A stretch of 64,000 bases of DNA, taken from positions 267 through 64,266 of the forward strand of contig JBLHKV010000001.1 of the NCBI GenBank assembly GCA_047618115.1. The letters are read 5' to 3'. Position numbers and translations under genes: made by a program. Source of the stretch: Halieaceae bacterium (GTDB lineage: Bacteria > Pseudomonadota > Gammaproteobacteria > Pseudomonadales > Halieaceae). The notes under the pieces are model-generated. The model was not told the origin of the DNA, did no database searches, and saw only the letters and a program-made list of their open reading frames with translations. Shown here one piece after another: positions 2,999-57,383 of this stretch (positions are counted from its first letter, which is position 1; the number at the start of each line of letters is the position of its first letter).

Positions 2999-3919
2999 AT
3001 GAGGTTGGGGTTTTCAATGCCGCATATGCTGCGGATAAAGGCAATAACTCAGCCCTGGGAAGCGCATGTGACTGGAGCAGATCAGACACGCCTAGCGAAG
3101 CTGGCGGAAAAACTGGGTTACGAGATGATAGCGGTACCCGAACACTTCCTTGTGCCGCAGGAACACCGGGAGCTGTCCGGGCCGCATTATTTTAATGCCT
3201 CCAGTGCCATGGCTTACTGGGCTGGTGCGACCGAGAAAATTCGGGTCAACAGCTGTATCTCTATTTTACCTTTGCAGAACCCCATCATCACAGCCAAAGC
3301 ACTTGCCACTATGGACTGGCTCTCCAGTGGTCGTGTCACCATTACGTTTGCAGTCGGCTGGTTGAAAGGTGAATTCGATGCTATGGGTGTCGACTACCAT
3401 CAGCGCGGTGAGATCAGTGAGGAATATATCCAGGCTATCATCGAGCTGTGGACTAAAGAGAAACCCGAGTTCGAGGGCAAATACGTTTCCTTCCGAGACG
3501 TTGCCTTCGAGCCCAAGTGCTTCCAAAAACCGCATCTCCCTATCTGGTTTGGAGGTGATGCTGATGCCGTATTAAAGCGCACTGCACGCTATGCCACCGG
3601 TTGGTGGCCCTTCCTCACCAAACCCGAAGATATCCCAGCCAAGATCGACTTTATTAAGTCGCAGCCGGACTACAAAGGCAAGTTGACCGATATTTTCTAT
3701 GGTTTTGCTACCTCTCGTGTTGGAGATGGCCACGTTGTGCAAACAGACCCGCGCGCCAGACCCGGCATGACCAAGCAAGAAATTATCGACCGCCTCTGTT
3801 GGCTCATGGATATGGGTGTCACATGGAGTTCAGTGCCGATACCGCGAGTGAAGCACATAGAGGACTATTGTGATTACACGCAGTGGGTTGCCGAAGAAAT
3901 CATGCCTGTGGTTAAGTGA
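2999..3919 (+). CDS. luciferase-like (LLM class) flavin/F420-dependent oxidoreductase
   Basis: 306 aa. MRLGFSMP..LAKLAEKLGYEMIAVPEHF..SGRVTITFAVGW..PIWFGG.. is the pattern typical of LLM TIM-barrel oxidoreductases. Confidence 0.8.
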   Translation: MRLGFSMPHMLRIKAITQPWEAHVTGADQTRLAKLAEKLGYEMIAVPEHFLVPQEHRELSGPHYFNASSAMAYWAGATEKIRVNSCISILPLQNPIITAKALATMDWLSSGRVTITFAVGWLKGEFDAMGVDYHQRGEISEEYIQAIIELWTKEKPEFEGKYVSFRDVAFEPKCFQKPHLPIWFGGDADAVLKRTARYATGWWPFLTKPEDIPAKIDFIKSQPDYKGKLTDIFYGFATSRVGDGHVVQTDPRARPGMTKQEIIDRLCWLMDMGVTWSSVPIPRVKHIEDYCDYTQWVAEEIMPVVK

Positions 3920-3992: not shown

Positions 3993-4792
3993 ATGGAGAC
4001 CACAATGTACAAACTTGGCATTCACCACATGAGCGCGCTGGAAGCGGATCCGCTCTCCTTCGTTTCCCTTGTCGCAGAAGCGGGCTGCAATGAAATATCC
4101 GTATTCACGCAAGCACCCGGGTCCAGCTCAAGATTTCCTCTGGTGACAACGCAAAACCTTGTCGGCATGAAGGCGAGATTGGAAGACAACGGTATATACG
4201 TTACCAATGTCGATGCATTCATCATTAGCCCGACACAGATATCGCAGCCTTCAGGCCTGCCCTGGAACTTGGTGCCGAACTGAGTGCCCGCGGTGCGGTG
4301 ACTATCGTCTACGACGCTGATGAATCTCGTGCAATCGATTCCCTAGGAGCCCTGTGTAACGTGGCAGAGCCGCTGGGCCTGAAGATCGCCATCGAATTCG
4401 TGGCCGTCACTCCTGCCTGGAATACGCTGGCGAGCGCAGCGGAGCTGGTGACCAAAATCGGACACCGCAACCTCGCCCTGGATATCGATATTTTACATCT
4501 AGCGCGTTCGGGAGGGACGCCAGCAGATGTGGCAGCACTTGAATCTCGCCTGATTGCACACGCACAACTCAGTGATGTTGCAGACCTCACGGCTACCGCT
4601 GATTACGGCGAGGAGGCTGCAGCCAACCGTGTTACTCCCGGTGATGGCGTATTCCCACTGGATGCATTCCTGCGAGCACTGCCCAAGGGAACCCCGCTGG
4701 AACTGGAAGTTCCCCAGCCACCAGACCGGCCCGCTATAGAGCGCCTTCGACATGTAGTAACCGCTACACGGCAGCTGCTAGACGCCCTGTAG
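3993..4792 (+). pseudogene. xylose-isomerase-like TIM-barrel (sugar phosphate isomerase/epimerase family) gene split by a 1-nt frameshift near 4229-4232
   Basis: Track ORFs 3993..4283 and 4298..4792 are the two halves of one protein of about 266 aa. Frame 0 reads ..NVDAFIISP and then nonsense to a stop at 4283. The next frame opens after the TAG at 4226-4228 and reads DTDIAAFRPALELGAELSARGAVTIVYDADE.. into the second ORF. The joined protein is collinear with the intact paralog at 47778..48596 (ELGAR region; R-x-PGDG-x-PL motif). Confidence 0.7.
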
Positions 4793-4838: not shown

Positions 4839-5984
4839 TCAGGACTTGACCGGGATTGCAAAGCGCTCGCAATAATCCTTATACCGCTCGCGAATTTGCT
4901 CCTTGTTTAGCCCGTAATCCTCTAACGAATAGGCATGACTGCCGTGCTTACCCTTGGGGTTGTCCTGAATATAGCGATTCATTGCAGTTTCGGCTTCTGC
5001 GGTGAAAGGCTCATCGAAGTGCTGGTAGACCTTTCTAATTTCCTCAATCGGGTCGCGCATAACATCCGCGTATTGAATGTCGCAGATTGAATCCCAGCCG
5101 TGCTTTTCCTTGTAGGCCAAGGTGCGCGCAATCATTACATCAAAAGTTTCCAGTAAACTTTGCCCGATGACCTTGGGGTCGACATCGTCACTGAACATCG
5201 GGCGCACGGTATTGACCAGACTGCAGGCAGATCCGACAACATCGACAGGGTCGCGGTGCGTCATAACCAACTGGGCGTCGGGGTAGATTGTGGTGAGTTC
5301 CTTGAGATAGAGCGGGTGCCATGGATTTTTCAGTGTCCAGCGGCCGCCGGTCTGAGCTTGTAATAACTGCAACAGGCGCTTGTGATATTGGAAGGCTGGC
5401 AGATAGTCCGCTTCGTGGAGAAACCATTGATGGTAACTCGGAATATCGTACATCGAGTCATAGTATTGTGCGACGAACGAAGGCGACATCGAAAACTGGC
5501 ACTCGGTCGGGCTGTCGGCGTCCTCGTGATGAATGGCTGAAATATGGGGCGCATATTTAAGCGACATTTCAATCTGTGCCTGGCTGGCCTCGTAGCGCGG
5601 CCCCCCATGCAGTTCAGATGTTTGGGGCGGCGGCACCGAATCAAACGCCTCCCAGCGCAGAAAAGACCGGCGGGAAGGATCGGCACTTAGAAGGTTGATC
5701 GCCAGTGTCGTACCCGTGCGCGGCAGGCCGAACACAAACAGGGGCTTTTCAATTGGCCGCTCCAGCACATGCGGATGCCGCGCCAGATAATCCTCTACCT
5801 TCATACGGTTTGCCAGCGTTGCGATCAGATTAGCCTGCACGCTCTGTGTTCCGCGATCAGTGAGCTTCGCCTCACTATTAAGCGCATCGACGAGGCGACC
5901 CAGCGCCTCCAGAATACCGTCATCGCCAAGCTGGCTCAGACCGGTTTGCTGCTGCGCGGCGGCGATTAGTTCGTCAACTTGCAT
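4839..5984 (-). CDS. PAPS-type sulfotransferase family protein (paralog 1 of 3)
   Basis: 381 aa. 5'-phosphosulfate loop GLPRTGTTLAINLL. 3'-phosphate region LVMTHRDPVDVVGSACS. No signal peptide. Confidence 0.85.
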   Translation of the reverse strand: MQVDELIAAAQQQTGLSQLGDDGILEALGRLVDALNSEAKLTDRGTQSVQANLIATLANRMKVEDYLARHPHVLERPIEKPLFVFGLPRTGTTLAINLLSADPSRRSFLRWEAFDSVPPPQTSELHGGPRYEASQAQIEMSLKYAPHISAIHHEDADSPTECQFSMSPSFVAQYYDSMYDIPSYHQWFLHEADYLPAFQYHKRLLQLLQAQTGGRWTLKNPWHPLYLKELTTIYPDAQLVMTHRDPVDVVGSACSLVNTVRPMFSDDVDPKVIGQSLLETFDVMIARTLAYKEKHGWDSICDIQYADVMRDPIEEIRKVYQHFDEPFTAEAETAMNRYIQDNPKGKHGSHAYSLEDYGLNKEQIRERYKDYCERFAIPVKS

Positions 5985-6266: not shown

Positions 6267-7076
6267 ATGTCCAAGGGTTTATTTGATCTGAGCGGTAAAG
6301 TCGCACTGGTTACCGGGGGCAACAGCGGACTTGGCCTGGGCTTTGCCCGGGGCATCGCCAAACAGGGTGGAGATGTAGTGATATGGGGCCGATCTCAGGA
6401 AAAGAATACTATCGCAGTCGATGAGCTGCAGGCACTGGGCGTGCGCGCTTCCGCACGCGCTGTCGATGTCTCCTCACAGGACGAGGTTATCGCCGGCTTT
6501 GAAGCACTGATGGCTGAATATGGACGGATCGATACCGTGATCGCCAATGCGGGCATGCCACCCAACACGCGCTCCATTCTGAGCACCAGCAAGGAGGACT
6601 ACCTAACCCTTCTGGGCACCAATATGCACGGGGCTTTTTACACACTGCAAGAGGGTGCCAAGTTGATGGTCACTCGAGCCGAAGCCGGTGAACCCGGGGG
6701 CTCACTGATTTTCTGTGGCAGTCTGTCAATTTTTCAGGGCGTACCCGGTATCGGCCCCTATGCTGCAGCCAAAGGCGGCATCAGCGCGGCACTGCGCTGT
6801 ATGGCAGTGGAACTGGGTCAATTTGGTATTCGCGCCAATACCATTGCCCCAGGATACGTCAAGAGCGGTTTTGCAGGCGGCACCCAGGACGGAAAAATTC
6901 TGCCTGAAGAGGAATGGAATGATATCGACAAGCTCTTTGCCGGAAAAGGCGCCATCAAGCGGCCCGGTTTCCCGGAGGATTTTGAAGGCGTTGCCGCCTA
7001 TCTCGCCAGTGATGCCTCCCGCTGGCACAGCGGGGATACCATTGTGATCGACGGTGCATCCCTGATACACATTTAA
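6267..7076 (+). CDS. short-chain dehydrogenase/reductase (SDR)
   Basis: Start re-called to the ATG at 6267, preceded by GGAGG (6258-6262). MSKGLFDLSGKVALVTGGNSGLGLG (TGxxxGxG). The track ORF 6174..7076 carries an unsupported N-terminal extension. Confidence 0.9.
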   Translation: MSKGLFDLSGKVALVTGGNSGLGLGFARGIAKQGGDVVIWGRSQEKNTIAVDELQALGVRASARAVDVSSQDEVIAGFEALMAEYGRIDTVIANAGMPPNTRSILSTSKEDYLTLLGTNMHGAFYTLQEGAKLMVTRAEAGEPGGSLIFCGSLSIFQGVPGIGPYAAAKGGISAALRCMAVELGQFGIRANTIAPGYVKSGFAGGTQDGKILPEEEWNDIDKLFAGKGAIKRPGFPEDFEGVAAYLASDASRWHSGDTIVIDGASLIHI

Positions 7077-7101: not shown

Positions 7102-8112
7102 ATGCGAAGTATGCTCAATATCCACGAGGTGGGCGATGCCCGCCTCGATCAGGTCGCCACACCCACACCGGGAAGCAAAGATGTTCTGGTCGACATAAAA
7201 GCCTGTGGTATCTGCGGCAGTGATCTTACCTACATCAAGGTTGGGGGAATCATGCGCCCACCAGGTGGTGTGACACCACTGGGGCATGAAGCCGCAGGTG
7301 TAATCGCCTACGTAGGTGCAGACGTGGAAGGTGTCAGCGTGGGCCAGCGCGTGATCATCAACCCGATGATGACCCCCAGCATGATAGGCAGTGGCGGCCC
7401 GGAAGGTGCCTTTACCGAACAGCTGCTGGTAAGTGACGCCCGTATCGGCGACAGCCTGCTGCCCATCCCCGACGATCTTCCCTACGATATCGCCGCACTG
7501 ACCGAGCCACTGGCGGTGGCCCTGCACGGCGTCAACCGGGCCGAGGTGAAACCCGGCGACAAAGTGGTCGTCTTCGGTTGCGGGCCCATCGGGCTAGGCA
7601 TGGTTTTATGGCTGCTTGAGCGCGGTGTTACAGATGTCGTTGCGCTGGATCTTTCAGAAGACCGGCTGGCCCGTGCGAGAGCCCTGGGTGCCCAGGCCGC
7701 ACTAAACCCTACCGAAGTAGATTTACGCGAGGAGCTGATGAAACTGCACGGCGTCGGCAGGGTCCTGAACCGCGATGCTGTAGGAACCGATGCCTTTATC
7801 GATGCCGCCGGCGCACCTAATATTCTCGCAGATGTCATCCGCATGGCGAAGTTTCACGCCAGGATGGTTGTGACCGCCGCGTACCTCGCGCCAATAGAAA
7901 TCCCGCTAGGCTCGATGCTGACCACGGAGATGACCATCACCACCGCCATGGGCTACCCCACTGAAATGCCTGAAGTTGTGGCTGCCCTGCCAAGACTGAA
8001 AGACAAGCTGGCACCCATGATCAGCCACCACTTCCCCCTGGAACAGGTCGTCGAGGCTTTGGACGTGGCGAGAGATCCCTCGTCTGCAAAAGTGATGATT
8101 GATATCGGCTAA
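7102..8112 (+). CDS. zinc-dependent medium-chain alcohol dehydrogenase (MDR)
   Basis: 336 aa. CGICGSDL and GHEAAGVI zinc/catalytic motifs. GCGPIGLG Rossmann motif. Confidence 0.9.
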   Translation: MRSMLNIHEVGDARLDQVATPTPGSKDVLVDIKACGICGSDLTYIKVGGIMRPPGGVTPLGHEAAGVIAYVGADVEGVSVGQRVIINPMMTPSMIGSGGPEGAFTEQLLVSDARIGDSLLPIPDDLPYDIAALTEPLAVALHGVNRAEVKPGDKVVVFGCGPIGLGMVLWLLERGVTDVVALDLSEDRLARARALGAQAALNPTEVDLREELMKLHGVGRVLNRDAVGTDAFIDAAGAPNILADVIRMAKFHARMVVTAAYLAPIEIPLGSMLTTEMTITTAMGYPTEMPEVVAALPRLKDKLAPMISHHFPLEQVVEALDVARDPSSAKVMIDIG

Positions 8113-29154: not shown

Positions 29155-29157
29155 GCT

Positions 29158-30306
29158 TCAGTCCTCCCTGCCAGGGTCTACCGGGTGGACCTTGAGGTAG
29201 TCCGCGAAATACGGCTCGAGATCCTTTTTACTATAGCCCCACTCTTCCAGCGAGTAAGAGTGCTTGCCAAAGCGGTTCTGCGGGTTTTCCTGCAGCCATT
29301 GTTGCATTCCGGATTCCGCCGCTTGCGTCCACTCATCCCCCAGCCAGCGATAAACTTTTTTCAACGCTGCGACAGGATCTTGCATCAGGTCGTCGTAGTA
29401 CAAGTTGTAAATATCGTCCGGGCGCTGTTTAGCCATCTCCAGCGGGCGCCGCAGATGAAGAGAGAGTTGCAGCGGCCATTTACAGCGCATGTAGTCCGCA
29501 TCGACGCTTTTGTTAAACAGCTTCAGCGCGTTAGCGCGCATGCTGAATGAACTGGCAAAAGCCGCATAGGGGTCGCGGTGAGTCCAGATCACCTTCGCGT
29601 CGGGGAAGGTGCTGAATACATAGGGGATAAACACGGAGTCGGAAGGCATCTTCAACACCCAACGCCCCGGGTTCCTGGTTTGAAGTACCTGCAGCGCCCG
29701 CTTGCGGTGTTCGTAAGCTGAGCTCATGTCGCAATCCAGCAACCAGTCCGCATAGATGGGAGTCGGCGTCATCGCCATAAACATCATGGAACGGAAATCC
29801 TGGGCGAGCAGGTGGACGCATTCGGTGGGACCGTCTGCGGGTTCGAAGTGGGTTTTCACCCCGTCTGGGTTTTGCTTGATGATCTGCTCGTCAAAAGACT
29901 TTTCGGCCACGCAACGCTCGTCGCTGCGCAGCGCTCCGGGCGCGGCGGGTGGCGCCACGTTATTGGCTTCCCAGCGCAGCATGGAGCGGTTGGCCGGATC
30001 CGCGTCCATCAGGTAACTGGTCATGGTAGTACCGGTGCGCACCAGGCCGAGGATAATTACCGGCCGCTTGATGGGGTTCTCCAGCACATCCGGATGCTGG
30101 CGGATGTGCTCGTCAACGCGCATTCGATTGACCAGTGCGCCAACGTAGCGGCCTTTCAGCCTCTGCTCTCCCTGCTCGGTCAACAACTGCGAGCGAGCGT
30201 GATCACGAAGGAGAATCCCCAACCCCTCCTGCCAGGTATCCCTTTCCGGGTCGGGTAGCTGTGCAGTCTCGCGAGCGGACCGCACAATTTCGTCAAATGT
30301 CAGCAT
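29158..30306 (-). CDS. PAPS-type sulfotransferase family protein (paralog 2 of 3)
   Basis: Start re-called to the ATG at 30306 (GGAGG 6 nt upstream, inside the preceding gene). GLVRTGTTMTSYLM and IWTHRDPYAAFASSFS. No signal peptide. Confidence 0.85.
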   Translation of the reverse strand: MLTFDEIVRSARETAQLPDPERDTWQEGLGILLRDHARSQLLTEQGEQRLKGRYVGALVNRMRVDEHIRQHPDVLENPIKRPVIILGLVRTGTTMTSYLMDADPANRSMLRWEANNVAPPAAPGALRSDERCVAEKSFDEQIIKQNPDGVKTHFEPADGPTECVHLLAQDFRSMMFMAMTPTPIYADWLLDCDMSSAYEHRKRALQVLQTRNPGRWVLKMPSDSVFIPYVFSTFPDAKVIWTHRDPYAAFASSFSMRANALKLFNKSVDADYMRCKWPLQLSLHLRRPLEMAKQRPDDIYNLYYDDLMQDPVAALKKVYRWLGDEWTQAAESGMQQWLQENPQNRFGKHSYSLEEWGYSKKDLEPYFADYLKVHPVDPGRED

Positions 30307-31333
30307 GCTTGCCTCCGCCTCTCTCTGGTGTGGCGCATACCGCGCGCAGCGCATACCAGTCCATCGCATCATTTACTGTCTCGGCTACTGGTCTGGGATT
30401 CCAGTGCAAATCGCGACGGGCCTTACTGTTATCCATTTCCTTAAACGCAGCAGATAAAAACACTGCGTCTTTACTCAACATCGAATCTTTAATAGCAAAC
30501 AGCTTGATAAATACCTCGGCCACACTAGTGACAGCAACGGCGACTCCATGCGGGATGAAGCGCAAAGCTTCATGCTCGCCCCATGTAGTGGCCAGCCCGT
30601 AGAGATCGCGGTTACTAATGTACTCGTTCGCAATAATGTAACGCTCACCAATGTGACCATTTGTCTCTGCTGATATTGCCGCCGCTGCCACATCGCGAAT
30701 ATCCACCATTGGCGCACTGGTATCCATAGCGCGCGTTGCCTTCCCCGAACCCGCTTGCCACAGCGCTCCACCGTGAGGCGTGGGCTGATAGTCTTGAGGG
30801 CCATACGTATTTGCTACACACAGAGCAACACCCGGCAGCCCTTTGTGTTCGCAGTAGTCCATAAAGCGCTCCTCTGCTTGGAGGCGAGCGAGAATGTAAG
30901 CTGAAGCCTTGTCGCGCCAGTTAAATTCAATCTCTTCGGTAACCGCACCATTGGCGTTAAATCCCAGCGTACCCATGGTGCTGGTGAAGATAAAATGCTG
31001 AATGCCGCAAGCCAGCGCTGCATCCATCGCATTCACTAACCCATCCACATTGTTCTGATAAAGAGGCGTTGGATCTGACAACCAGAAACGCGCGTCCACA
31101 ACACTGTAAAAAACCGAGCTGCAGCCCTGCATTGCGACGCGCAGGGATTCCGGGTCCAACACATCACCGTAGTAAATTTCTACCGGCAAATCCTGCACGG
31201 CTTCTACGCTGCTGGTCTTGCGCAACAGCACGCGGACTTTGCGCCCGGCGCTGACTAACGCTCTGGCCGTGTGACTACCTACAAAGCCACTTGCGCCCGC
31301 TACCAGTACTGGCTTCTCGTCCGGGGTTTTCAT
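30293..31333 (-). CDS. extended-SDR NAD-dependent epimerase/dehydratase family, 3beta-hydroxysteroid dehydrogenase/isomerase-like
   Basis: 346 aa. PVLVAGASGFVGSHTARALVSAGRKVRVLLRK. Its ATG overlaps the upstream sulfatase stop (ATGA at 31330..31333). Confidence 0.8.
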   Translation of the reverse strand: MKTPDEKPVLVAGASGFVGSHTARALVSAGRKVRVLLRKTSSVEAVQDLPVEIYYGDVLDPESLRVAMQGCSSVFYSVVDARFWLSDPTPLYQNNVDGLVNAMDAALACGIQHFIFTSTMGTLGFNANGAVTEEIEFNWRDKASAYILARLQAEERFMDYCEHKGLPGVALCVANTYGPQDYQPTPHGGALWQAGSGKATRAMDTSAPMVDIRDVAAAAISAETNGHIGERYIIANEYISNRDLYGLATTWGEHEALRFIPHGVAVAVTSVAEVFIKLFAIKDSMLSKDAVFLSAAFKEMDNSKARRDLHWNPRPVAETVNDAMDWYALRAVCATPERGGGKHADI

Positions 31334-33705: not shown

Positions 33706-33761
33706 AAACACTCCAGGAATTTTGCTTGTTGACACCTAACCTCACACCGAGACTGGCCGCC

Positions 33762-46491: not shown

Positions 46492-47727
46492 TCAAAGACC
46501 GTAGCGCCGGGAAACGCCTTCAAAACGCGCTTTGAGTTGACGGATTCTTTCCTCTGGCGACACAAGCTGCGAATCCGCAGGTAGCACTTGTGCCACTGCC
46601 GAGAATTCAATGAGTTGAGTGTAGAAGGTCGTAGAATGCTTACTCATTAAACTGCGATAGGTGATATTACCGCGCTCAAACCCCTGAGTGTCTATCCAAT
46701 TGTTATAACCAGGATCGCGGTGGCAAAGAATCAAACGGACTTTACCATCGCTATCAACAGCTGCACGACTGGGGGTATAACTTATCGGGCGATAGAGATA
46801 ATCGAGACTATTCATAAAAACCCCATTGTTAGACATCATCCAAAAATCATCGTGGGAATCAAATTCGATCAACAGCGCCTCTTCCTCGCCCAGCTGCCAA
46901 CAAAGGTGGGCAACAGCACGACCGCGTTTTTTATCATCATCACCAATGCCACCTGCGGGATCAGCGGGAAACGCATTCACGTTTACTGGGTCCACAAAGG
47001 GGCTGTACTTGTTGGGGTGGTCTGGCCAGTCATTCATTAACCCTTCTACAAATTGCCCGGCCCAGCCCATCGCTTCAATCATAGTTGCAGTCGTGGGCAA
47101 GGGTTTTGGTTCCTGCATTGCGACGCGTTCGATGTGCAGCTGCGCTGGCAGCTCATCCCAGCGGTCAAATCCCTGACGCAAAAATAATTTACGGGTATCG
47201 GCCGTCGTGGGCATCCAGTTAACTCCCTGTTCATTTCCGCCAATAAACAACTCGAAGCTACCATCGGCATCTGTAATCAGTTGATGGCCGAACAAGTTCG
47301 CCTCTGGAACATCTCCAAAGGGCTCATGCAAACTGGGAATCTGCGTACCCGGCTGCATTTCTGGTCGCTGCCCCTGTAAAGTGAAGTTTAGAAAACGAGC
47401 CGTGCCCTGATTACCCGAGATACGATAGACAGATTCGCCATCAATCCACGCCTGCCAATAGGATATATCTGCCGCGTCGCCTCCAAGCTTTCTTGTTGGT
47501 GTACAAAACGGATGTAAAACAGGATAGCGTGTATCGCGGGTTTCCAGGGCGAGATCAAAAGCCTGCCCGAGATTTTGTGTCAAAAAGCGGAAGGCATCAA
47601 CGCGATGAATCGGTGAGGCAGGGTTAACGTCTTTAAAAACTTTCTCGCCCGCCTCTTCCAATTGTCGACAAAAGGTCTGCCAAGCCTCGCGCAATGCAGC
47701 ATCACAGGGGCCGTCGTCGAAAGCCAT
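46492..47727 (-). CDS. conserved hypothetical protein (411 aa; possibly DUF1214-like)
   Basis: Long ORF with AGGAGA 7 nt upstream of the ATG and coding-like composition. The family guess is low confidence. Confidence 0.7.
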   Translation of the reverse strand: MAFDDGPCDAALREAWQTFCRQLEEAGEKVFKDVNPASPIHRVDAFRFLTQNLGQAFDLALETRDTRYPVLHPFCTPTRKLGGDAADISYWQAWIDGESVYRISGNQGTARFLNFTLQGQRPEMQPGTQIPSLHEPFGDVPEANLFGHQLITDADGSFELFIGGNEQGVNWMPTTADTRKLFLRQGFDRWDELPAQLHIERVAMQEPKPLPTTATMIEAMGWAGQFVEGLMNDWPDHPNKYSPFVDPVNVNAFPADPAGGIGDDDKKRGRAVAHLCWQLGEEEALLIEFDSHDDFWMMSNNGVFMNSLDYLYRPISYTPSRAAVDSDGKVRLILCHRDPGYNNWIDTQGFERGNITYRSLMSKHSTTFYTQLIEFSAVAQVLPADSQLVSPEERIRQLKARFEGVSRRYGL

Positions 47728-47750
47728 ATCTACATCTCCTGGTTACAATA

Positions 47751-47780
47751 ATATTCGCGGCCCTAATACTCGCGGCCCTA
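47751..47780. repeat. 15-bp tandem repeat x2 (ATATTCGCGGCCCTA / ATACTCGCGGCCCTA)
   Basis: Read directly from the sequence; one mismatch. The last 3 nt (47778-47780) are the TAG stop of the TIM-barrel gene. Confidence 0.9.
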
Positions 47781-48596
47781 TCCGCCAGCGCAGTCTAGCA
47801 ATAGCTGCTCAAGATTATGCACGCTGCGCTGCACGGCCTGAAGATGCCCTTCCCTATCGATTCTTGGACCGAGCAGCTCCAGATCAAAAGTACCCTGGTA
47901 GTCCTCCTGAAATAGCCAATCGATCAGTCGGGCTAAAGGCACATCCCCATCTCCAGGAACCGCCCTACCCGGGAGATTCCGATCTCCACAGACGTAATCG
48001 CTAACCTGAACAAGATCGCAGATGGGCACAGCCCGCGCAATCAGGTTTTTAAGATCAGCTTCGGTCCAGCATCCAACCAGGTCTATACAGACACCGATAC
48101 CTGCCATCTCGGCCAGGCTAATGGTATCTCGCAGTGAATGGGCAATATGCAGATCGGCATACACTGGTGGAGCGTTTTCAATCATCAGGGCAATACCGGC
48201 AGCACGCGCCTGTGCGGCACAGGGTGCGACCGCCGCAGAGAAAACCTCAGCCGCCTGCTCCCACACTAAATCGCCATGGCCACCCGTTGTCATATAGATT
48301 GAACGCGCTCCAAGCTCACTCGCCATTTCAATTTGTGCTGACAGGTTTTTCCGCGGTTCTATCCACGTACTGGTATCGGATGTAAGAGGTGTTTGCGACG
48401 AAAATGGATGCACAACGGTCTCTAACTGATAGCCGCCCTGTGCAAGAGCGCTCTTGACGATATTGATATCCGCCGCATCAACCTGGGGGCCCACCAGACT
48501 GACTCTGGATACCTGCAGACTTGGCCAGTGCGCCAATTGCTGCTCCAGCGTCTCATCCATAAAACAAATATTGTTGACTGAAATATTGGGATGCAT
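47778..48596 (-). CDS. xylose-isomerase-like TIM-barrel protein (sugar phosphate isomerase/epimerase family)
   Basis: 272 aa. ..ASELGARSIYMTTGG.., ..LMIEN.., ..GRAVPGDGDVPLARLIDWL... Paralog of the frameshifted gene at 3993..4792. Confidence 0.8.
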   Translation of the reverse strand: MHPNISVNNICFMDETLEQQLAHWPSLQVSRVSLVGPQVDAADINIVKSALAQGGYQLETVVHPFSSQTPLTSDTSTWIEPRKNLSAQIEMASELGARSIYMTTGGHGDLVWEQAAEVFSAAVAPCAAQARAAGIALMIENAPPVYADLHIAHSLRDTISLAEMAGIGVCIDLVGCWTEADLKNLIARAVPICDLVQVSDYVCGDRNLPGRAVPGDGDVPLARLIDWLFQEDYQGTFDLELLGPRIDREGHLQAVQRSVHNLEQLLLDCAGG

Positions 48597-48625
48597 AGTT
48601 TAATTTACCTGATCAATATGTCCGG

Positions 48626-48654
48626 GTTGCTTGCCGGTAATACTCGCAAGCAAC
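48626..48654. other. intercistronic stem-loop (9-bp perfect stem GTTGCTTGC / GCAAGCAAC, 11-nt loop)
   Basis: Read directly. It lies in the 85-nt spacer between the sulfotransferase stop (48682) and the TIM-barrel start (48596). No U-tract. Confidence 0.5.
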
Positions 48655-48681
48655 TAAAGTTAGTGACGGGCTAGTGAAGCG

Positions 48682-49851
48682 TTAGTCACGCTTTTCCACA
48701 TCAAGCCCGAAACGCTCACGATAAGGCGCAAATTCTTCGTTAAGTTCATTGATGTCCGCCCCAATCATAGCGCTGGAGTAAACGAACTTTCCGTAGCGAT
48801 CGCCCCTATTATTTTTTAGATACTCACGCATGGCTTGCTCCGCTGCAGCCGTCATCGGCAGACCGCAAAATTCGTAAAACCTGGTAATGGTGCCGATCGG
48901 ATCCGTGACAATATCGCGATAGCGCACATGATAAATACGGGGGTCATCAACCAGCGGATTGGACAGGGTCTGTTTGATTCCCGCCCGCGTGGCCGCAAGA
49001 TGGATGGCGGCCTGCTCATCGATATTCACCTGGCCGGCAAAGGCTTTCGTCAGCGTTACGGCCATGCCAATACGGGAGGCCGTAACCTGGACCGGATCAC
49101 GATGAGTCCAGATTAATCTGGCATCAGGGTAGCTTGCAAAAAAAGCCTCTAGCCGCGGCCCATGAAAGCCCTTCAACGCCCAGCGTTTTTTGGGTCGCCC
49201 ATGCTGGCAATGCTGGAGCATCATTTTGTGGATACGGTACTGCGCCAAATCGTCGGTAGGCAGTCCACCCACATACATACCAATGGGCGCCCGCCACCAG
49301 GCAGTGGGCGTCATCACCCGAAAGTCAAAAGCCCAGGTACGTTCACACTCAGGAAGGCCATCACCCAGCATGTCGTTATACGGATGAATCGTTAGCCACG
49401 CCGGCGCAATGTCGTTAATTTCCCGCCAATCGGCATCCGCTATAGCGTGACGCGGGTCATCGGCCTGCGCCAATCCCGGTGGCGGCGACGGGTACATCAC
49501 TTCCCAAAAACGCAGGGACCGCGCATCCGGGTCCACCGACAACAAAGCGTGCAGAAGTGTCGTTCCTGAACGAGGCTCACCTGTGGCAAAAATGGGTTGT
49601 TGTATAACCTCCTCTGCGAGGCCGGGGTAAATTTTGTGATCATCAAAAAACTGCAAACGAGAGGTAAGCAGTCCATGACACACCTGGGCTGCAGCGCGCT
49701 CGCCAGCTTCATCCATATGAATTTTTCGCAGCTGATCCAGACCAAGTGAAAATCGCTCTTTGAAGCTCGGATCCCCATAGTCCTGCAGCCCCAATCCGGT
49801 CTCGGCTTTGCGTAGCAAGGTGTCGGCATCGAGGATCGATTGAACTACCAA
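48682..49851 (-). CDS. PAPS-type sulfotransferase family protein (paralog 3 of 3)
   Basis: 389 aa. GEPRSGTTLLHALL and IWTHRDPVQVTASRIG. The track start at 49851 is a TTG, 5 nt after the LLM stop. The N-terminus is collinear with the other two paralogs. Confidence 0.85.
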   Translation of the reverse strand: MVVQSILDADTLLRKAETGLGLQDYGDPSFKERFSLGLDQLRKIHMDEAGERAAAQVCHGLLTSRLQFFDDHKIYPGLAEEVIQQPIFATGEPRSGTTLLHALLSVDPDARSLRFWEVMYPSPPPGLAQADDPRHAIADADWREINDIAPAWLTIHPYNDMLGDGLPECERTWAFDFRVMTPTAWWRAPIGMYVGGLPTDDLAQYRIHKMMLQHCQHGRPKKRWALKGFHGPRLEAFFASYPDARLIWTHRDPVQVTASRIGMAVTLTKAFAGQVNIDEQAAIHLAATRAGIKQTLSNPLVDDPRIYHVRYRDIVTDPIGTITRFYEFCGLPMTAAAEQAMREYLKNNRGDRYGKFVYSSAMIGADINELNEEFAPYRERFGLDVEKRD

Positions 49852-49856
49852 CGCTC

Positions 49857-50975
49857 TTATTCCCCGCAGAGCTTCAATAGCTCATCTTCGGCTTCCCGCA
49901 CTTTGGCAGCGGAAAGGGCACTGTACTTGAGCCCGGCCATGCCACCGTAATCGAGAATTTTAGGCACTCGCAGACCGGCATCGACATAGCCTTTGATTTG
50001 TCTGGCTACCTGTTTTGGGGTGCCATGTGGAATGACGGCGAGAATTGACTCAGGCTCTACCTTGGCCAGCATATCAAGAACTCTCTCCCGGGTTAGCACA
50101 CCGGGATCAATATCCTGGTAACCACCCCAGCTCTCCCCCATCGGGTGCTTGAAGCCAAACGTCTTGAGTGCCGCCGCAGAAATTTGCAGAATCCAGGCTT
50201 TGACCAGAGGCGCCTCAAGTATTTCTGCCAGCTCGCTGTCATCGCCGATCAAACAGGTCATGATAAAAGCCGGTACGATGGCCATCGGGTCCCGGCCCGC
50301 CTGTTCTGCTGACTCGCGGATTACCTGTAGTTTCTCGGCATATTCTTCCGGCGACCAGGCCCCGGCTGGCCACCAGCCGTCGGCATAGCGTCCGGTAAGT
50401 TTAAGCATGCGCGGACCACTGGCGCCGATCCATATTTTTGGGAACTGTCCCTCATAGGGCTCGGTATCCAGGCGCGCGTGGTGCAGTTTGAAAAACTGCC
50501 CAGAGAAATCCACCGGCCCCTCGCTGTCCCACAACAACCGAATAACTTCAAGAGCCTCCTCAAATCGACTCACAGGTTTGGAAAAGTCGAAACCGTATGG
50601 CACTGTGTTTTCAGTTTCACCACTGCCAAGACCTAAAATAAACCGACCGCCGGAAAGGTGGTCGATGGTCAGCGCTGTCTGCGCCAGTGACGACGGATGG
50701 CGGCGAACTGTATCTACCACGCTCGTAGCAATCGGCACGTTGCTGGTCAGCACTGCAGCGGCTGAGGCAACAGCAAGACCGTCCAGATTCCGATGCGGAG
50801 AAGGTGACAACGTTGCCAGGTCTGTGAATTCGGGCGTCCAGATCGAATCGGGCCAAAAGCTGACCATGTGATCTGGCAGCCAGATGGAGTGATAACGACC
50901 GCTATCAAGATTGTCGAGGACACTGAAATCCAGAGGCAGCGTGGTGCGTAAAAATGCAGCGGGTTGGACCTTCAT
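49857..50975 (-). CDS. luciferase-like (LLM class) flavin-dependent oxidoreductase
   Basis: 372 aa. ..LTIDHLSGGRFILGLGSGE.., ..PKIWIGASGPRMLKLTGRYADGWWP... AGGAGAG upstream of the ATG. Confidence 0.85.
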   Translation of the reverse strand: MKVQPAAFLRTTLPLDFSVLDNLDSGRYHSIWLPDHMVSFWPDSIWTPEFTDLATLSPSPHRNLDGLAVASAAAVLTSNVPIATSVVDTVRRHPSSLAQTALTIDHLSGGRFILGLGSGETENTVPYGFDFSKPVSRFEEALEVIRLLWDSEGPVDFSGQFFKLHHARLDTEPYEGQFPKIWIGASGPRMLKLTGRYADGWWPAGAWSPEEYAEKLQVIRESAEQAGRDPMAIVPAFIMTCLIGDDSELAEILEAPLVKAWILQISAAALKTFGFKHPMGESWGGYQDIDPGVLTRERVLDMLAKVEPESILAVIPHGTPKQVARQIKGYVDAGLRVPKILDYGGMAGLKYSALSAAKVREAEDELLKLCGE

Positions 50976-51121
50976 CGATGAGCTCTCCTGGGCGCAAACA
51001 ACACCTTATAGCGAGTTACTGGCAAAAGCTCTACTACGGGTTCGCTATCCAGCGACGATCCAGTAGCTATACCTGCTAGCCAGCGAGAAATACTTACGCT
51101 AATATACACCATTGGTGATTA

Positions 51122-51910
51122 ATGGCAATTTGCGGGAATATCAGTATGGCCCTCTACACAACGATTCATTTACACAATGTGCCGGGAGATAAAGAGACAG
51201 CCTACGCCCAGTGGTTCGACACAGATCATCAATCAGCGCTTGCCCATCTGAGGGGCTTTATGCAGGCGGAGCGGTACGAGGTGGACGAAGTCCAGATCAT
51301 GCCGGATATACACCAGCCATGGCGTTTTATGAGCCTGTACGAATTCGACCTGCCCTCCCCTGAAATCGACATTCCGGCACTGGGCCCGCTGATAGCGTCG
51401 GCGCGGGACGACGGTATGATCGCCGACGACGAAACCGAGCGCCTGTATTCTTACCGTCTTTACAGCGACTGGAAAGCCAGCCCAAACTGGCAGCGAGACC
51501 AGCCCTTTTCCGGCGTCAGCGTCCTTCTCGGGAACTATGTAGCCGGCCGCGGTGCCGAGTATCATAAGTGGTACGACGAAGTACACAGCGGCGAAGTCAT
51601 CAATGTTCCTGGTCACGTGGCGATGAAACGCGGTGAACTCTCACCCGTACAGATCGAGCCAAAGCACTATTGCCCGGGCGATCAACTCATTCTCTGTGCC
51701 AACCAGACCGACAACTTAACGTTCACCGTCCGCGATTTTAGCGCGAGGGCACGCGGTGTTAGTCCCAGCGGGATTGCCATGCAGCCTCGATCCACGTCGG
51801 GTTCATTCGCAAGAACCGTACATTATTTCCACAAAGTGAGCGGCACCGATTTCTGGCCGGGCGGGATTGCCTACGCGGGGGATCTTACGCCCTATCAAGA
51901 CAACAATTGA
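51122..51910 (+). CDS. two-domain protein made of tandem EthD-like (dimeric alpha/beta-barrel) modules
   Basis: Both halves carry the same signature (YAQWFDTDHQSALAHLRGFMQAERYEV and YHKWYDEVHSGEVINVPGHVAMKRGEL). The single-domain protein at 59636..59968 also carries it. The start could instead be the ATG at 51146. Confidence 0.65.
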   Translation: MAICGNISMALYTTIHLHNVPGDKETAYAQWFDTDHQSALAHLRGFMQAERYEVDEVQIMPDIHQPWRFMSLYEFDLPSPEIDIPALGPLIASARDDGMIADDETERLYSYRLYSDWKASPNWQRDQPFSGVSVLLGNYVAGRGAEYHKWYDEVHSGEVINVPGHVAMKRGELSPVQIEPKHYCPGDQLILCANQTDNLTFTVRDFSARARGVSPSGIAMQPRSTSGSFARTVHYFHKVSGTDFWPGGIAYAGDLTPYQDNN

Positions 51911-54313: not shown

Positions 54314-55993
54314 TCACGTGCCAGCGGCGTGTTTCGCAGCAACATAAGCCCAGGTAAACGCTGGCCCGAGACTACACCCTGCCCCGGGGTACATTCGTCC
54401 CATCACTGAACCTGTTGCCACTCCTGTGGCATAAAGGCCAGGAATCACAGAGCCGTCATCGCGCACTACTCTGCTGTGCTCATCTGTGAGTACACCGCCA
54501 AAGGTACCTACGTCTCCGGGCACGACCGGTATCGCATAGAATGGCCCCTGCTCTAGTGTGCCCAGTGTCTGTGATGACTCGCGCAGTGGATCTCCCAACC
54601 AATTGTCGTAGGCACGATCACCGCGTTTGAAGTCTTCGTCTTTACCTTTGAGTACAAAGCCATTGAACCGCTCGATGGTGGCGCTGAGAGCATCGGGCTC
54701 GACCTCAATCTCTTTTGCGAGATCGATAATCGAAGCGGCTTTTTTCAGGTAACCTTCGTCGTACCATTGCTGTGGTAATCTACTTCCGGGCATGTGGCCA
54801 ACGAACATATATTTACTCATGTACTGGCTGTCAACTATCGCCCAACTTGGAATGGCCGCTACTTGCTTGTTGCGCTCTAAAATCCCCTTGCAGTACGCCA
54901 CATACGATCCGCCCTCGTTCATGTAGCGCACTCCGGTTCGATCGACAAGAATTGCGTGCGGCGCCGCTGTGAGGCCCTGAACACCCGGCTTGAACTCTTC
55001 GTTCTCTGCACCAGGTGGCATAGTCGCCTGGTAACCCACAAACTCTTCAATTTGCGCAGGGGCAGCACCCTCGCTCAGCATTGCCTTGATCATCTCACCG
55101 GTATCACCCGGAGCGGCATTGCTCCAGGCGGGAGACGTGCCGGGCTGGTAACGCTCGCGCATTTGCGCGTTGTGTGCGAAGCCACCGGTATTGACCAGCA
55201 CACCAAGCTCGGCAGCAACGCGCAATGTGCGACCATTTTGCCGTGTCACCACTCCCGTCACTTTGCCATTCTCAAGAATCAACTCGTTAACGGGCGACTC
55301 GGTGCGCACATCGACTCCCGCTTTAAGAACCTGTTGCAGCAACCGCCCCTGCAGAGCCGCTCCACCTCCCAGATAATGCTTGCCTGTCAGCTTGGCAATT
55401 ATTCCTCGAAAAATAATTTTCAGCAGCGTGCGTTTGGATTTCCAGGAACGCTTCATATGCGGCAGTTGGCGCATTTCCTCTATGGAACCCGGTAGGTCGC
55501 CCGGCAATTTGATGAAGCTGGGGCGAAGTCTATTTTTCCATTCGCCCAACTCGTTCACGTTGAACAGTTTGGCGACAACAGTGCGTCCAGGAACTGATCC
55601 TCCCGGAGCTTCATCGTAATAATCGGGCCAGGATGACGGTCGGTCCAACTCAATCCCCTGTGCCAGCAGGAAGTCGAGCATCTGCGGCGCTTCGTTAAGG
55701 AAAACTCGCCGTCGTTCCGGAGTGGCGGCCGGGGCATCTTCCTGGTCACCCGTCACTGCATCGAGATAGGTCGCTGCACTTTCATAGCTGTCTGCAACCC
55801 CATCGCGCGCCATAAACGGATTGTTAGGGATCCACATGACGCCGCCGGACCTGGCAGTGGTGCCACCAATCAACTCGGTTTTCTCCAGAATTAACACTCG
55901 TTTACCTGCCGAGTGCAGATACAGGGCGGCGGCCATGGAGCCTGCTCCACTGCCGGCGATAACAAAATCAAAACTCTCGTCATAATCACTCAT
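54314..55993 (-). CDS. FAD-dependent oxidoreductase, 3-ketosteroid delta1-dehydrogenase (KstD)-like
   Basis: 559 aa. FDFVIAGSGAGSMAAALYL..ILEKTELIGGTTARSGGVMWIPNN closely follows the KstD/fumarate-reductase flavoprotein N-terminus. Confidence 0.85.
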   Translation of the reverse strand: MSDYDESFDFVIAGSGAGSMAAALYLHSAGKRVLILEKTELIGGTTARSGGVMWIPNNPFMARDGVADSYESAATYLDAVTGDQEDAPAATPERRRVFLNEAPQMLDFLLAQGIELDRPSSWPDYYDEAPGGSVPGRTVVAKLFNVNELGEWKNRLRPSFIKLPGDLPGSIEEMRQLPHMKRSWKSKRTLLKIIFRGIIAKLTGKHYLGGGAALQGRLLQQVLKAGVDVRTESPVNELILENGKVTGVVTRQNGRTLRVAAELGVLVNTGGFAHNAQMRERYQPGTSPAWSNAAPGDTGEMIKAMLSEGAAPAQIEEFVGYQATMPPGAENEEFKPGVQGLTAAPHAILVDRTGVRYMNEGGSYVAYCKGILERNKQVAAIPSWAIVDSQYMSKYMFVGHMPGSRLPQQWYDEGYLKKAASIIDLAKEIEVEPDALSATIERFNGFVLKGKDEDFKRGDRAYDNWLGDPLRESSQTLGTLEQGPFYAIPVVPGDVGTFGGVLTDEHSRVVRDDGSVIPGLYATGVATGSVMGRMYPGAGCSLGPAFTWAYVAAKHAAGT

Positions 55994-55996
55994 GGT

Positions 55997-57370
55997 TTAG
56001 TCCAGTTGCGCCTCGGCGGATTCGATTTCTGATTTCAGCCACATAACTTCGCTGAAATTCTCTCCACCGGATGCCTCTAGCAGTTGTTGGTGCGCATGTA
56101 TTTTGGCCTTTAGCGATCGCTGGTTTTTAGAGTCGGCCTGCAGTGCGGTATCGATGAGATGCAGTGCCTCCAGCGGTCGCTTTTCTGCCAGATAATTTTC
56201 AGCGCGCGCTGCCAATGCGTCGGCGCCGCCCGCCAGCTCTGCGATATCTGCTGCGACGGCAGTGGCCGGAACACCGTACAGTGAAGTGGTTGCGTCATAG
56301 TGGAACCAGCCTGCGTACTCTTCCCAGATCGCACGTACGCACCAGGAAAGTTTACCGTGGGCCTGCCCCACTTTAAGTTCTTCGGGTAGAGAGACTTCAC
56401 GCATCAGGGTCTGAACATCCTTGCCCGCCTGCATGCCTTCAATGGTGTAGTCGTGCACGTGGACAACAGCAGCGCGCACACTTTGTAGTGCGTCCTGAAT
56501 CTCCGCTGCTCCGCGAACAACTTCGTGACCAGTGACAATCACTTCCGGCTGCAACGCGGCCACAAAGTCCAGAGACTTGATAAAACGTTTTGCGGAACGA
56601 ATCTTGTCGCCACGAATCGTGTAAAGGTTTGGCATGTTGGCAAACACGGGACCGAACAGGTTGCCGGTAATTACTGTTTTATCCTGTGGCATCCAAACGA
56701 CGACCCCATCCTCACTTTCGCCGCCTGACACCGCATACAACTCCAGCTGCCGACCACCCAGCTCCAACCGATAGTCATCTCTGAAGGTGATATCAGGCGT
56801 TACTTCACGAAGAATGCTCTTAACGTCCCCCCGTGTACCCAGCACAGAGGCCCATAACTTGCTGGAGCGTCTCTTGTAGAAATCATCGAGTATTTGCCAG
56901 TACTCTCGACACTGTGTGTATTGTTCCTGGGTGATAACACGAGTTTCCGGATCGCGAATCTCATGGACACCGCCAAAGTGGTCGCCGTGACACTGGGTGA
57001 TTATCAGAAATTCCACCGGCTGTTTACTAACACTCTGGAACCGCTGCCGGTGTTCCTCGCCATTGCCCGGCATGCCGCTATTAATCACGACATTGCCTTG
57101 GGGCGTGGTCACCAGAATGCTATCGCTGATATCCTTGGATACCCACAGATGATCGTTCACTTCGACCAGCTGTTCTTCGCGCATGGCATTCCCCGTGAGC
57201 GCTCCGAGCGGGGTCATGCCGGCTGCCTTTTCGTCAATGTCAGACATTGTGTTCTCCTGGTTATTTTTTTCCGCTATCCATTCAGCTTCCTCTCTATCGG
57301 CCTGTGTAACCGCACAGCCGCACAAAGCAACTGATAAAAGGCAGGCTGAAAATTTTTGCAGACGGTGCAT
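55997..57370 (-). CDS. lipoprotein MBL-fold hydrolase, type III alkyl/aryl-sulfatase (SdsA1/Bds1)-like, without the SCP2-like C-terminal domain
   Basis: Start re-called to the ATG at 57370. Lipobox in MHRLQKFSACLLSVALCGC. Metal motif ITQCHGDHFGG. Downstream, NMPNLYTIRG, WCVRAIWEEYAGWFHYD, LAGGADALAARAENYL and a helical tail are collinear with my memory of the SdsA1 MBL + dimerisation domains. The protein ends where the SCP2-like domain would begin. Confidence 0.65.
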   Translation of the reverse strand: MHRLQKFSACLLSVALCGCAVTQADREEAEWIAEKNNQENTMSDIDEKAAGMTPLGALTGNAMREEQLVEVNDHLWVSKDISDSILVTTPQGNVVINSGMPGNGEEHRQRFQSVSKQPVEFLIITQCHGDHFGGVHEIRDPETRVITQEQYTQCREYWQILDDFYKRRSSKLWASVLGTRGDVKSILREVTPDITFRDDYRLELGGRQLELYAVSGGESEDGVVVWMPQDKTVITGNLFGPVFANMPNLYTIRGDKIRSAKRFIKSLDFVAALQPEVIVTGHEVVRGAAEIQDALQSVRAAVVHVHDYTIEGMQAGKDVQTLMREVSLPEELKVGQAHGKLSWCVRAIWEEYAGWFHYDATTSLYGVPATAVAADIAELAGGADALAARAENYLAEKRPLEALHLIDTALQADSKNQRSLKAKIHAHQQLLEASGGENFSEVMWLKSEIESAEAQLD

Positions 57371-57383
57371 TTCTGAATTTTTC

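Follow-up and report, generated by a model that had tools for sequence, protein, structure and literature searches.

Within a 64,000-nucleotide stretch of a Halieaceae bacterium genome (NCBI GenBank assembly GCA_047618115.1, contig JBLHKV010000001.1, positions 267 to 64,266; hereafter the window, in whose coordinates positions are given) lies what its sequence indicates to be a real and compact four-gene operon on the minus strand (46492-50975). Its first gene, LLM-A (49857..50975), is predicted to encode a luciferase-like (LLM) alcohol/ketone oxidoreductase of the cofactor F420 type. It is followed after 5 nt by ST-A (48682..49851), a putative Stf-type sulfotransferase (ST) dependent on 3′-phosphoadenosine 5′-phosphosulfate (PAPS), and after a further 85 nt by TIM-A (47778..48596), a divergent xylose-isomerase-like TIM barrel. 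The last gene is DUF-A (46492..47727), which encodes a 411-aa DUF1214-like protein, giving the order LLM-ST-TIM-DUF. A first-pass annotation of the window had described the first three genes as a three-gene module occurring twice, as copies A and B. The three open reading frames (ORFs) of copy A are present with the coordinates, strand and spacers it gave, and Pfam confirms their families; the fourth gene of the operon had been overlooked. About 125 nt upstream of LLM-A there is weak evidence for a promoter-like site (51101..51128, minus strand; TTGCCA-16-TATATT, 10/12 matches), although a promoter/terminator scan of the operon region returned no more sites than expected from shuffled sequence. 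The same scan found no minus-strand terminator-like site inside the operon. We also considered recent horizontal transfer of the cassette into this genome, for which base composition gives no signal (GC content 53.2% in the cassette versus 54.7% in the window).

The case for copy A as a unit comes from its conservation in other genomes. A locus scan taking one genome per species gave 504 loci with relatives; the cassette counts that follow refer to the best 80 of these 504, in which the neighbours of ST-A orthologs were identified by tblastn. More than 100 ST-A orthologs (64-84% identity) occur in marine Cellvibrionales. In Halioxenophilus, Mangrovimicrobium and Pseudomaricurvus the LLM, the ST, the TIM barrel and a 409-411-aa protein with no Pfam match are always co-directional, and the flanks outside these four genes differ among the three. 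It had been suggested with the first-pass annotation that neighbourhoods seeded on the sulfotransferase be counted. In the neighbourhoods seeded on ST-A, the gene immediately upstream of the ST is an LLM-A ortholog (69-89% identity) in 80/80 loci, a TIM gene follows the ST in 69/80 and a DUF1214-like gene lies downstream in 72/80. The full LLM-ST-TIM-DUF order is found in 66 of the 80 loci, LLM-ST-DUF in 6 and LLM-ST only in 5, the other 3 being truncated or otherwise arranged, and the median intergenic gaps are -1, 13 and 13 nt. No common replacement partner was found in the five LLM-ST-only loci.

The loci are spread over Cellvibrionales, Steroidobacteraceae, Solimonas/Hydrocarboniphaga, Salinisphaerales, Sphingomonas/Sphingobium, Acetobacteraceae and Phenylobacterium. 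Beyond the Proteobacteria they occur in Verrucomicrobia-labelled bins and in Actinomycetota (24/80), mostly Mycobacterium and Mycolicibacterium. The distance matrices of the cassette proteins are correlated for all six pairs (Mantel r 0.62-0.80; 0/999 permutations reach the observed value), in agreement with co-evolution of the four, and the mean identity of LLM-A between Cellvibrionales and Actinomycetota is 72%. Together, the correlated matrices and this level of identity point to transfer and selection of the four-gene set as a unit. Positions conserved to at least 97% number 148/372 in LLM-A, 125/389 in ST-A, 50/272 in TIM-A and 124/411 in DUF-A, and all four proteins therefore appear to be under strong constraint. 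Because copy A is conserved in 80 genomes, its arrangement is far beyond chance.

Clustering of the flanking ORFs in the 80 loci revealed no universal fifth gene, be it a regulator, a transporter or a gene for PAPS supply; this clustering used naive ORF calls, which antisense shadow ORFs disturb in high-GC loci. The next cluster after the four cassette genes is a short-chain dehydrogenase/reductase (SDR) present in 29 loci at varying positions. In the window, a 262-aa ORF (51122-51910, plus strand) is divergent from the cassette; neither Pfam nor NCBIfam gives a match for it, and no homolog of it was found near the cassette in the 80 other loci. Carriage of the cassette on plasmids was considered and rejected, as PLSDB contains no LLM-A orthologs and only Rhodococcus LLMs at 35-39%. 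As to the Verrucomicrobiaceae- or Verrucomicrobia-labelled bins (L009 and L029, both of assembly GCA_964500675.1, and L027/L090), their genes are 65-79% identical to those of the window, and the labels may reflect mis-binning. GCA_964500675.1 carries orthologs of both ST-A and ST-B, the sulfotransferase of copy B, in one assembly.

LLM-A matches PF00296 (Bac_luciferase; 1.5e-56), and the NCBIfam models that fit it best all describe F420-dependent LLM subfamilies, with scores below cutoff. All of its nine best PDB sequences are F420-dependent enzymes, among them Mer, the hydroxymycolic acid dehydrogenase fHMAD, Adf and FGD, whereas the flavin mononucleotide (FMN) monooxygenases RutA, SsuD and LuxA match 6-15 orders of magnitude more poorly. 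The GLGSGETEN segment of LLM-A aligns with GAGEAMNE of Adf and GTGERLNE of fHMAD (the GxGxGE..N segment), where Mer has GPGDKAT. Moreover, the cassette is linked to F420 genes. In locus L090 the genes directly upstream encode CofD, CofE, an LLM, CofGH (1118 bits against a cutoff of 1018), CofC, Fno, a second LLM and an SDR, and F420 genes lie within 10 kb of the cassette in 8/56 non-actinobacterial loci. The first-pass annotation had taken the LLM for an FMN/NAD(P)H enzyme. Its closest relatives, its motif and this linkage instead indicate a hydride transferase of the F420-dependent alcohol/ketone type, and we consider an FMN monooxygenase unlikely. A literature search returned no paper that ties F420 to these families or to a sulfotransferase. 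As an aside on F420 biosynthesis, many FO synthases of the Steroidobacteraceae type (L034 13256-16240; P0241-P0360) are about 1000 aa long and have CofG and CofH joined to a CofC domain (PF01983), a three-domain fusion of biosynthetic steps.

ST-A matches Sulfotransfer_3 (8e-28; 98.6 bits versus a cutoff of 27) and, among PDB sequences, Stf9 of Mycobacterium avium (2Z6V) and Stf1 of M. tuberculosis (2ZQ5) at E 1e-34 to 1e-35. Its AlphaFold2 model (pLDDT 83.5, pTM 0.86) superposes on these structures with template-modelling (TM) scores of 0.79 and 0.73, respectively. The segments TGxxRxGTT (5′-PSB) and HRDPxQxxASR (3′-PB) are at least 97% conserved in 81 ST-A orthologs; we take these to be the PAPS motifs from established knowledge of the family. 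ST-A is thus predicted to be a PAPS-dependent sulfotransferase of the mycobacterial Stf type.

TIM-A matches AP_endonuc_2 (8e-17; 62.2 bits versus a cutoff of 31.1), and the weak NCBIfam matches of its family are to hydroxypyruvate isomerase, 2-oxo-tetronate isomerase and IolO. The protein keeps E140, D/E172, Q197 and E240, and a Gln stands in 69/69 orthologs where the nearest structures have the His of an HxSDW segment. From the alignment to 3JU2 and 7VPF and from family knowledge, the position of Q197 is presumably that of a metal ligand.

DUF-A has no Pfam or NCBIfam match, and the DUF1214 model (PF06742) stays silent even at E<=1; for its orthologs there are faint precomputed DUF1214 matches only. 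The sole structure it matches is PDB 6ANS, annotated as an 'uncharacterized protein' (E 2e-44). It does, however, share 25-26% identity (E 1e-25 to 1e-28) with proteins scoring above the DUF1214 threshold: by BLASTP it matches a protein of Novosphingobium aromaticivorans pNL2 at 1e-28 (33.7 bits on PF06742) and a Paraburkholderia protein at 6e-26 (39.5 bits). These similarities identify it as a divergent relative of the DUF1214 proteins. Among 1.84 billion representatives, about 1,000 clusters belong to its family at E<=1e-10, and a literature search returned nothing on DUF1214 function.

Copy B fared differently. It does hold one gene per family, namely LLM-B (2999..3919, plus strand), a TIGR03619-family LLM (191.5 bits versus a cutoff of 166.9), TIM-B (3993..4792, plus strand) and ST-B (4839..5984, minus strand), a Stf-type paralog outside the copy A operon (Sulfotransfer_3 3e-40; 139.2 bits). 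TIM-B, however, is not an intact ORF. Three-frame translation shows that a frameshift near 4225-4232 divides it into 3993-4283 and 4298-4792, with about 76 N-terminal codons in one frame and the remainder, from DTDIAAFRPALELGAE, in another; its C-terminal part still matches AP_endonuc_2 (1e-15; 58.5 bits). The frame change adjoins a CCC run and there is no homopolymer longer than 3, so that TIM-B is either a pseudogene or the product of an assembly error (indel). Nor are the two TIM barrels the clear paralogs they were taken for. BLASTP aligns only 95 residues (29%, E 2e-4), tblastn gives no link at E<=1e-3, and the RxxPGDGxxPL motif that had been read as a sign of paralogy is general to the family and occurs in PDB 3JU2 and 7VPF as well. 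ST-A and ST-B are indeed collinear, full-length paralogs (29% identity, E 3e-42), with PAPS motifs that are similar rather than identical (GEPRSGTT versus GLPRTGTT). LLM-A and LLM-B align over 183 residues at 27%.

Neighbourhoods seeded on ST-B and on LLM-B contain no triad in related genomes, which rules out copy B as a true second module. The ST-B orthogroup is large; its orthologs (63-82% identity) have an LLM or TIM neighbour in 0/7 loci, among them those of Mangrovimicrobium, Spongiibacteraceae, Sphingobium and Porticoccaceae and of two relatives that are closer (78% and 82%). The relative at 82% is syntenic with the window on the side that bears the SDR, alcohol dehydrogenase (ADH), carboxylesterase and CoA-transferase genes, and it carries AraC, TetR and fatty-acid hydroxylase genes in place of TIM-B and LLM-B. 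LLM-B orthologs (54-81%) were found on 16 metagenome contigs, at least 8 of them with usable flanks, and have no TIM-like or ST-like neighbour there. When the remaining LLM and TIM genes of the window are placed at random, a triad like copy B arises with P ~0.012, LLM proximity alone with P 0.17 and TIM adjacency alone with P 0.09. We therefore regard copy B as what appears to be a genome-specific juxtaposition, in which ST-B with its Zn-ADH and SDR neighbours is the only recurrent part.

These neighbours are an SDR at 6174-7076 and a Zn-dependent ADH (7102..8112, plus strand; ADH_N and ADH_zinc_N). Orthologs of the latter (66-82% identity) adjoin ST-B orthologs in L006, L008 and L128, and it is 40% identical to the ADH of an ADH-ST-DUF1214-TIM operon on pNL2. 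ATP sulfurylase and APS kinase genes also occur near ST-B orthologs, and an alkylsulfatase-like protein of the metallo-beta-lactamase (MBL) type recurs beside them in sphingomonads. TIM-B had no close relatives in the metagenome scan; the TIM genes closest to it adjoin B-type ST modules in Novosphingobium (35% to that of pNL2, 31% in L123). Since barrels of this type stand beside B-type ST modules in two Novosphingobium replicons, TIM-B beside ST-B may be what remains of a decaying B-type ADH-ST-DUF1214-TIM module, and we take the position of LLM-B beside the two to be incidental. Separately, an LLM-B ortholog (57%) lies immediately upstream of an LLM-A-ST-TIM-DUF cassette in a Porticoccaceae metagenome-assembled genome (L037 7250-8167), the only place outside the window where both LLM types were seen together.

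Paralogs of ST-A outside the cassette keep comparable company. On pNL2 of N. aromaticivorans a TetR gene is followed by genes for a Zn-ADH, a sulfotransferase, a DUF1214 protein, a sugar-phosphate isomerase/epimerase (TIM), a Gfo/Idh/MocA protein and an SDR. Paraburkholderia sprentiae has an operon of Zn-ADH, DUF1214, sulfotransferase, VOC, CysQ, CysD and CysN, and Tsukamurella has a DUF1214-like, SDR and sulfotransferase operon beside cysC and cysD, its sulfotransferase being the ortholog of M. tuberculosis Stf1 (E 2e-171). The order in Croceicoccus is SDR, ST, SDR, DUF1214-like and VOC; in N. resinovorum the ST faces an operon of SDR, VOC, DUF1214, NTF2 and F420-LLM; and in Sphingobium the order is SDR, Zn-ADH, alkylsulfatase-like MBL and ST, with the MBL in the DUF1214 slot (L006 8709-11164; L128 4676-7101). 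Across nine independent contexts without polyketide synthases (PKS), the ST has a DUF1214-like gene no more than three genes away in 6/9, a TIM gene in 2/9 and an LLM gene in 1/9; almost all of the contexts include an SDR or Zn-ADH. Judging from these neighbourhoods, Stf-type STs are recurrently paired with a secondary-alcohol oxidoreductase and a DUF1214-like protein, sometimes together with PAPS-supply genes, and the DUF1214-like protein is a more constant partner of this ST family than the TIM barrel. The earlier view that selection keeps the functions together can thus be retained because copy A is conserved across genomes, with the paralogous pNL2 operon in its support; the argument from two copies in the window fails.

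Two further neighbourhoods deserve mention. In P. sprentiae (L119 1-490, pl1WSM5005) a gene for an 'ecdysteroid 22-kinase family protein' precedes the ADH-DUF1214-ST-VOC-CysQ-CysDN operon and represents a second type of hydroxyl-activating enzyme in that neighbourhood. On plasmid p3 of Planktothrix agardhii (L122 1-7155) a type I PKS ends in a full-length Stf-like domain (34% to ST-B, E 6e-82), and downstream of it are an iron alcohol dehydrogenase gene and then two genes of the phytanoyl-CoA dioxygenase family.

The Tsukamurella operon bears on M. tuberculosis, in whose cholesterol gene set Rv3529c (Stf1), Rv3530c ('possible oxidoreductase') and Rv3531c ('hypothetical protein') are consecutive (PMC6429209). 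The mycobacterial cholesterol gene list also includes Rv3520c, an F420-dependent oxidoreductase (PMC6429209). By analogy with Tsukamurella, we infer that Rv3531c is the DUF1214-like partner of Stf1.

The window as a whole has the gene content of a catabolic island of lipid and steroid type. It encodes a KshA-like Rieske oxygenase, P450s, a KstD-like flavoprotein, a ChsH2-type OB-fold protein and an Ltp-like thiolase, along with IpdE/pimCD-like acyl-CoA dehydrogenases, EchA19-like hydratases, a CoA ligase, a CoA transferase, sulfatases and a TonB receptor. Orthologs of its KstD-like, acyl-CoA dehydrogenase, EchA19-like, P450 and aldehyde dehydrogenase genes lie near the cassette elsewhere in shuffled arrangements, and in L090 a START-domain protein follows the cassette. 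Isolates of Halieaceae and Spongiibacteraceae grow on cholesterol (PMC5790920). The window also holds a third Stf-type sulfotransferase paralog, ST-C (29158..30372, minus strand; Sulfotransfer_3 2e-37, 129.8 bits), with 33% identity to ST-B and 29% to ST-A. It lies between two formylglycine-type PF00884 sulfatases of about 800 aa (26758-29154 and 31330-33735, all on the minus strand) and adjoins a 3beta-HSD/epimerase-like SDR (30293-31333). Sulfate-adding and sulfate-removing enzymes thus appear to share one operon at 26758-33735; physiological coupling of an ST with a sulfatase is not described in the literature that we searched. Some 5 kb from the cassette, an alkylsulfatase-like MBL protein without the C-terminal SCP2-like domain stands beside the KstD-like flavoprotein (54314-57391), a pair that recurs in L026.

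We propose, with confidence a little short of even, that the copy A operon encodes four cytoplasmic enzymes acting sequentially on a hydrophobic (steroid-, isoprenoid- or lipid-like) molecule, at a position that bears a hydroxyl or keto group, and that the sulfate is transient. LLM-A, as an F420-dependent hydride transferase of the Adf/fHMAD/fPKR type, would interconvert a ketone and a secondary alcohol, and ST-A would move sulfate from PAPS to that hydroxyl. The sulfate ester would then be an activated intermediate rather than the end product, from which the DUF1214-like protein would eliminate or displace the sulfate, while the Gln-variant TIM barrel could serve as an optional accessory isomerase or dehydratase. 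The order of these steps, the transience of the sulfate, the catalytic roles of the DUF1214-like and TIM proteins and the substrate class are all inferred. That an alkylsulfatase-like protein can fill the DUF1214 slot in paralogous operons suggests that the sulfate is removed again, and sulfation followed by elimination or isomerisation, as originally put forward for the locus, remains plausible.

Several points weigh against this scheme. The characterised enzymes Stf0 and Stf3 make stable sulfated end products, and a catabolic route that consumes PAPS is expensive. No activity is known for the DUF1214 fold, and DUF-A could be a binding or scaffold protein instead of an enzyme. TIM-A lacks the canonical His of the Glu-Asp-His-Glu metal-binding set and, missing from 11/80 loci, is the least constant member of the cassette. 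On the side of the cofactor, LLM-A reaches only 131.3 bits on the F420-subfamily model TIGR03619, short of the cutoff of 166.9. F420 genes were found neither in the window nor in about 20 Cellvibrionales cassette loci, and a search for FbiC homologs names no Cellvibrionales among the best 120 of more than 8000 matches.

The stable products of Stf0 and Stf3 favour the main alternative, one that we regard as possible, albeit unlikely, in which the operon carries out biosynthetic tailoring: LLM-A would catalyse F420H2-dependent keto-reduction, ST-A would sulfate the resulting alcohol, and the TIM and DUF1214-like proteins would modify or handle a sulfated lipid or quinone that keeps its sulfate. 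The known mycobacterial Stf products are stable sulfated metabolites, oxidoreductase-then-ST logic is documented for cyp128-stf3 (PMC7404182), and fPKR reduces a lipid ketone ahead of O-modification (PMC8498797); in addition, the cassette is self-contained with flanks that vary among genomes, and the LLM-ST pair persists alone in 5 loci. Against tailoring, clustering of the flanking ORFs brought no exporter or lipid-carrier gene into the conserved unit, the neighbours are mostly catabolic (acyl-CoA dehydrogenase, enoyl-CoA hydratase, thiolase, KstD-like and P450 genes), and the alkylsulfatase-like protein that can occupy the DUF1214 slot in paralogous operons hints at removal of the sulfate. 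These same lipid- and steroid-type beta-oxidation neighbours, and the START lipid-binding protein after the cassette in L090, make a carbohydrate or cyclitol route improbable. Its substrate would be a sugar, sugar phosphate or inositol-like polyol, with an FGD-like LLM-A, a keto-sugar isomerase, epimerase or inosose-type dehydratase in the TIM barrel and a sugar sulfotransferase in ST-A. The sugar-acid and inosose enzymes among the weak NCBIfam matches of the TIM family, FGD among the structural relatives of LLM-A and the Gfo/Idh/MocA oxidoreductase of the pNL2 operon would all fit such a route, but flanking-ORF clustering found no recurrent sugar transporter or kinase near the cassette, and the barrel on which the route would depend is inconstant and without its canonical His ligand.

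A version of the scheme first suggested for the locus, in which an FMN-dependent monooxygenase served in trans by an NAD(P)H:flavin reductase hydroxylates or oxygenates the substrate before sulfation and TIM-barrel elimination, can draw on the Pfam family name 'luciferase-like monooxygenase', on the sub-cutoff NCBIfam score and on the lack of F420 genes near the Cellvibrionales cassettes. We nevertheless judge it very improbable, given the far poorer matches to RutA, SsuD and LuxA and the full F420 biosynthesis operons that abut the cassette in several genomes; the conserved unit also has no recurrent flavin reductase gene. Moreover, the 148 of 372 LLM-A residues that are invariant across F420-producing Actinomycetota and Proteobacteria make a single cofactor likely, which argues against FMN. 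That there is no functional unit at all, the genes being neighbours through the abundance of large families in catabolic islands, appears true for LLM-B in copy B, and the window does hold three STs, two LLMs and two TIMs. For copy A this explanation has a probability close to nil, being refuted by the invariable LLM adjacency, the full gene order in 66/80 loci, the overlapping or near-abutting genes, the correlated evolution and the unrelated flanks.

The individual enzyme families, as well as pairs of an oxidoreductase with a Stf, are known already. The four-gene set, the F420 link outside Actinobacteria, the Gln-variant TIM barrel and the DUF1214 partnership are new, and our literature search (ST, LLM and xylose isomerase) agrees with the first-pass annotation that no described pathway combines these families. 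The closest parallel to the first two steps is cyp128-stf3 of M. tuberculosis, which makes sulfomenaquinone and likewise places a Stf-type ST in an operon with an oxidoreductase that prepares a lipid hydroxyl (PMC7404182). There, however, the partner is a P450 hydroxylase rather than an F420-type LLM, no TIM or DUF1214-like gene is present, and the product is a stable sulfated quinone. The Stf1 locus (Rv3531c-Rv3530c-Rv3529c) shares the logic of oxidoreductase, ST and DUF1214-like protein, via the operon of the Tsukamurella ortholog, but its oxidoreductase is an SDR rather than an LLM and it has no TIM barrel. In structure ST-A groups with Stf1 and Stf9, yet its sequence identity to the solved Stf proteins is no more than about 26-27%. 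For LLM-A, the nearest structural and sequence relatives are fPKR (Rv2951c), fHMAD and Adf, with which it has the GxGxGE..N motif in common. Lipid ketones and alcohols are the substrates of fPKR and fHMAD, and the alcohol product of fPKR is then O-modified (PMC8498797), by methylation as opposed to the sulfation expected of the cassette. Identity to these enzymes is nonetheless low (E at the 1e-19 level), and LLM-A forms a highly conserved orthogroup of its own.

Transient sulfation has precedents in the ST-thioesterase of CurM/OLS, retinol dehydratase and LGS1, where PAPS-dependent sulfation of a hydroxyl is followed by loss of the sulfate to give an alkene or ring. The ST-A model matches the folds of all of these, but weakly (TM 0.3-0.5; 0.38 for the CurM ST). 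Unlike CurM/OLS, the cassette has no thioesterase partner, and elimination by the DUF1214-like or TIM protein is hypothetical. Removal of sulfate by hydrolysis is exemplified by Pisa1, an inverting MBL-type sec-alkylsulfatase that cleaves sec-alkyl sulfates with inversion (PMC3725421). The alkylsulfatase-like MBL protein in the DUF1214 slot beside ST-B-type STs in Sphingobium resembles it, although such an MBL sulfatase lies outside the conserved cassette.

A bolder extension, which we offer as doubtful, is that DUF1214-like proteins constitute an unrecognised class of sulfate-ester-processing enzymes, lyases or inverting hydrolases, which together with a Stf-type ST and an F420-LLM, Zn-ADH or SDR would make up a widespread route that activates a hydroxyl with sulfate and then expels it. 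If true, this route would serve to dehydrate, deoxygenate or invert unactivated secondary alcohols in steroid and lipid catabolism, and it would explain the orphan Stf1 locus (Rv3529c-Rv3531c) in the cholesterol regulon of M. tuberculosis.

Taken together, the operon ties an orphan orthogroup of F420-type LLMs, an orphan branch of the Stf family and a His-to-Gln TIM-barrel variant to the functionless DUF1214 superfamily. The partnership of an ST with an alcohol oxidoreductase and a DUF1214-like protein is apparently also found at the Stf1 locus in the cholesterol gene set of M. tuberculosis. These associations suggest hypotheses, open to test, on what Stf1 and DUF1214 do and on a role for F420 outside Actinobacteria, and they point to sulfate-ester chemistry as an overlooked step in the bacterial breakdown of steroids and lipids, in soil as well as in the sea.

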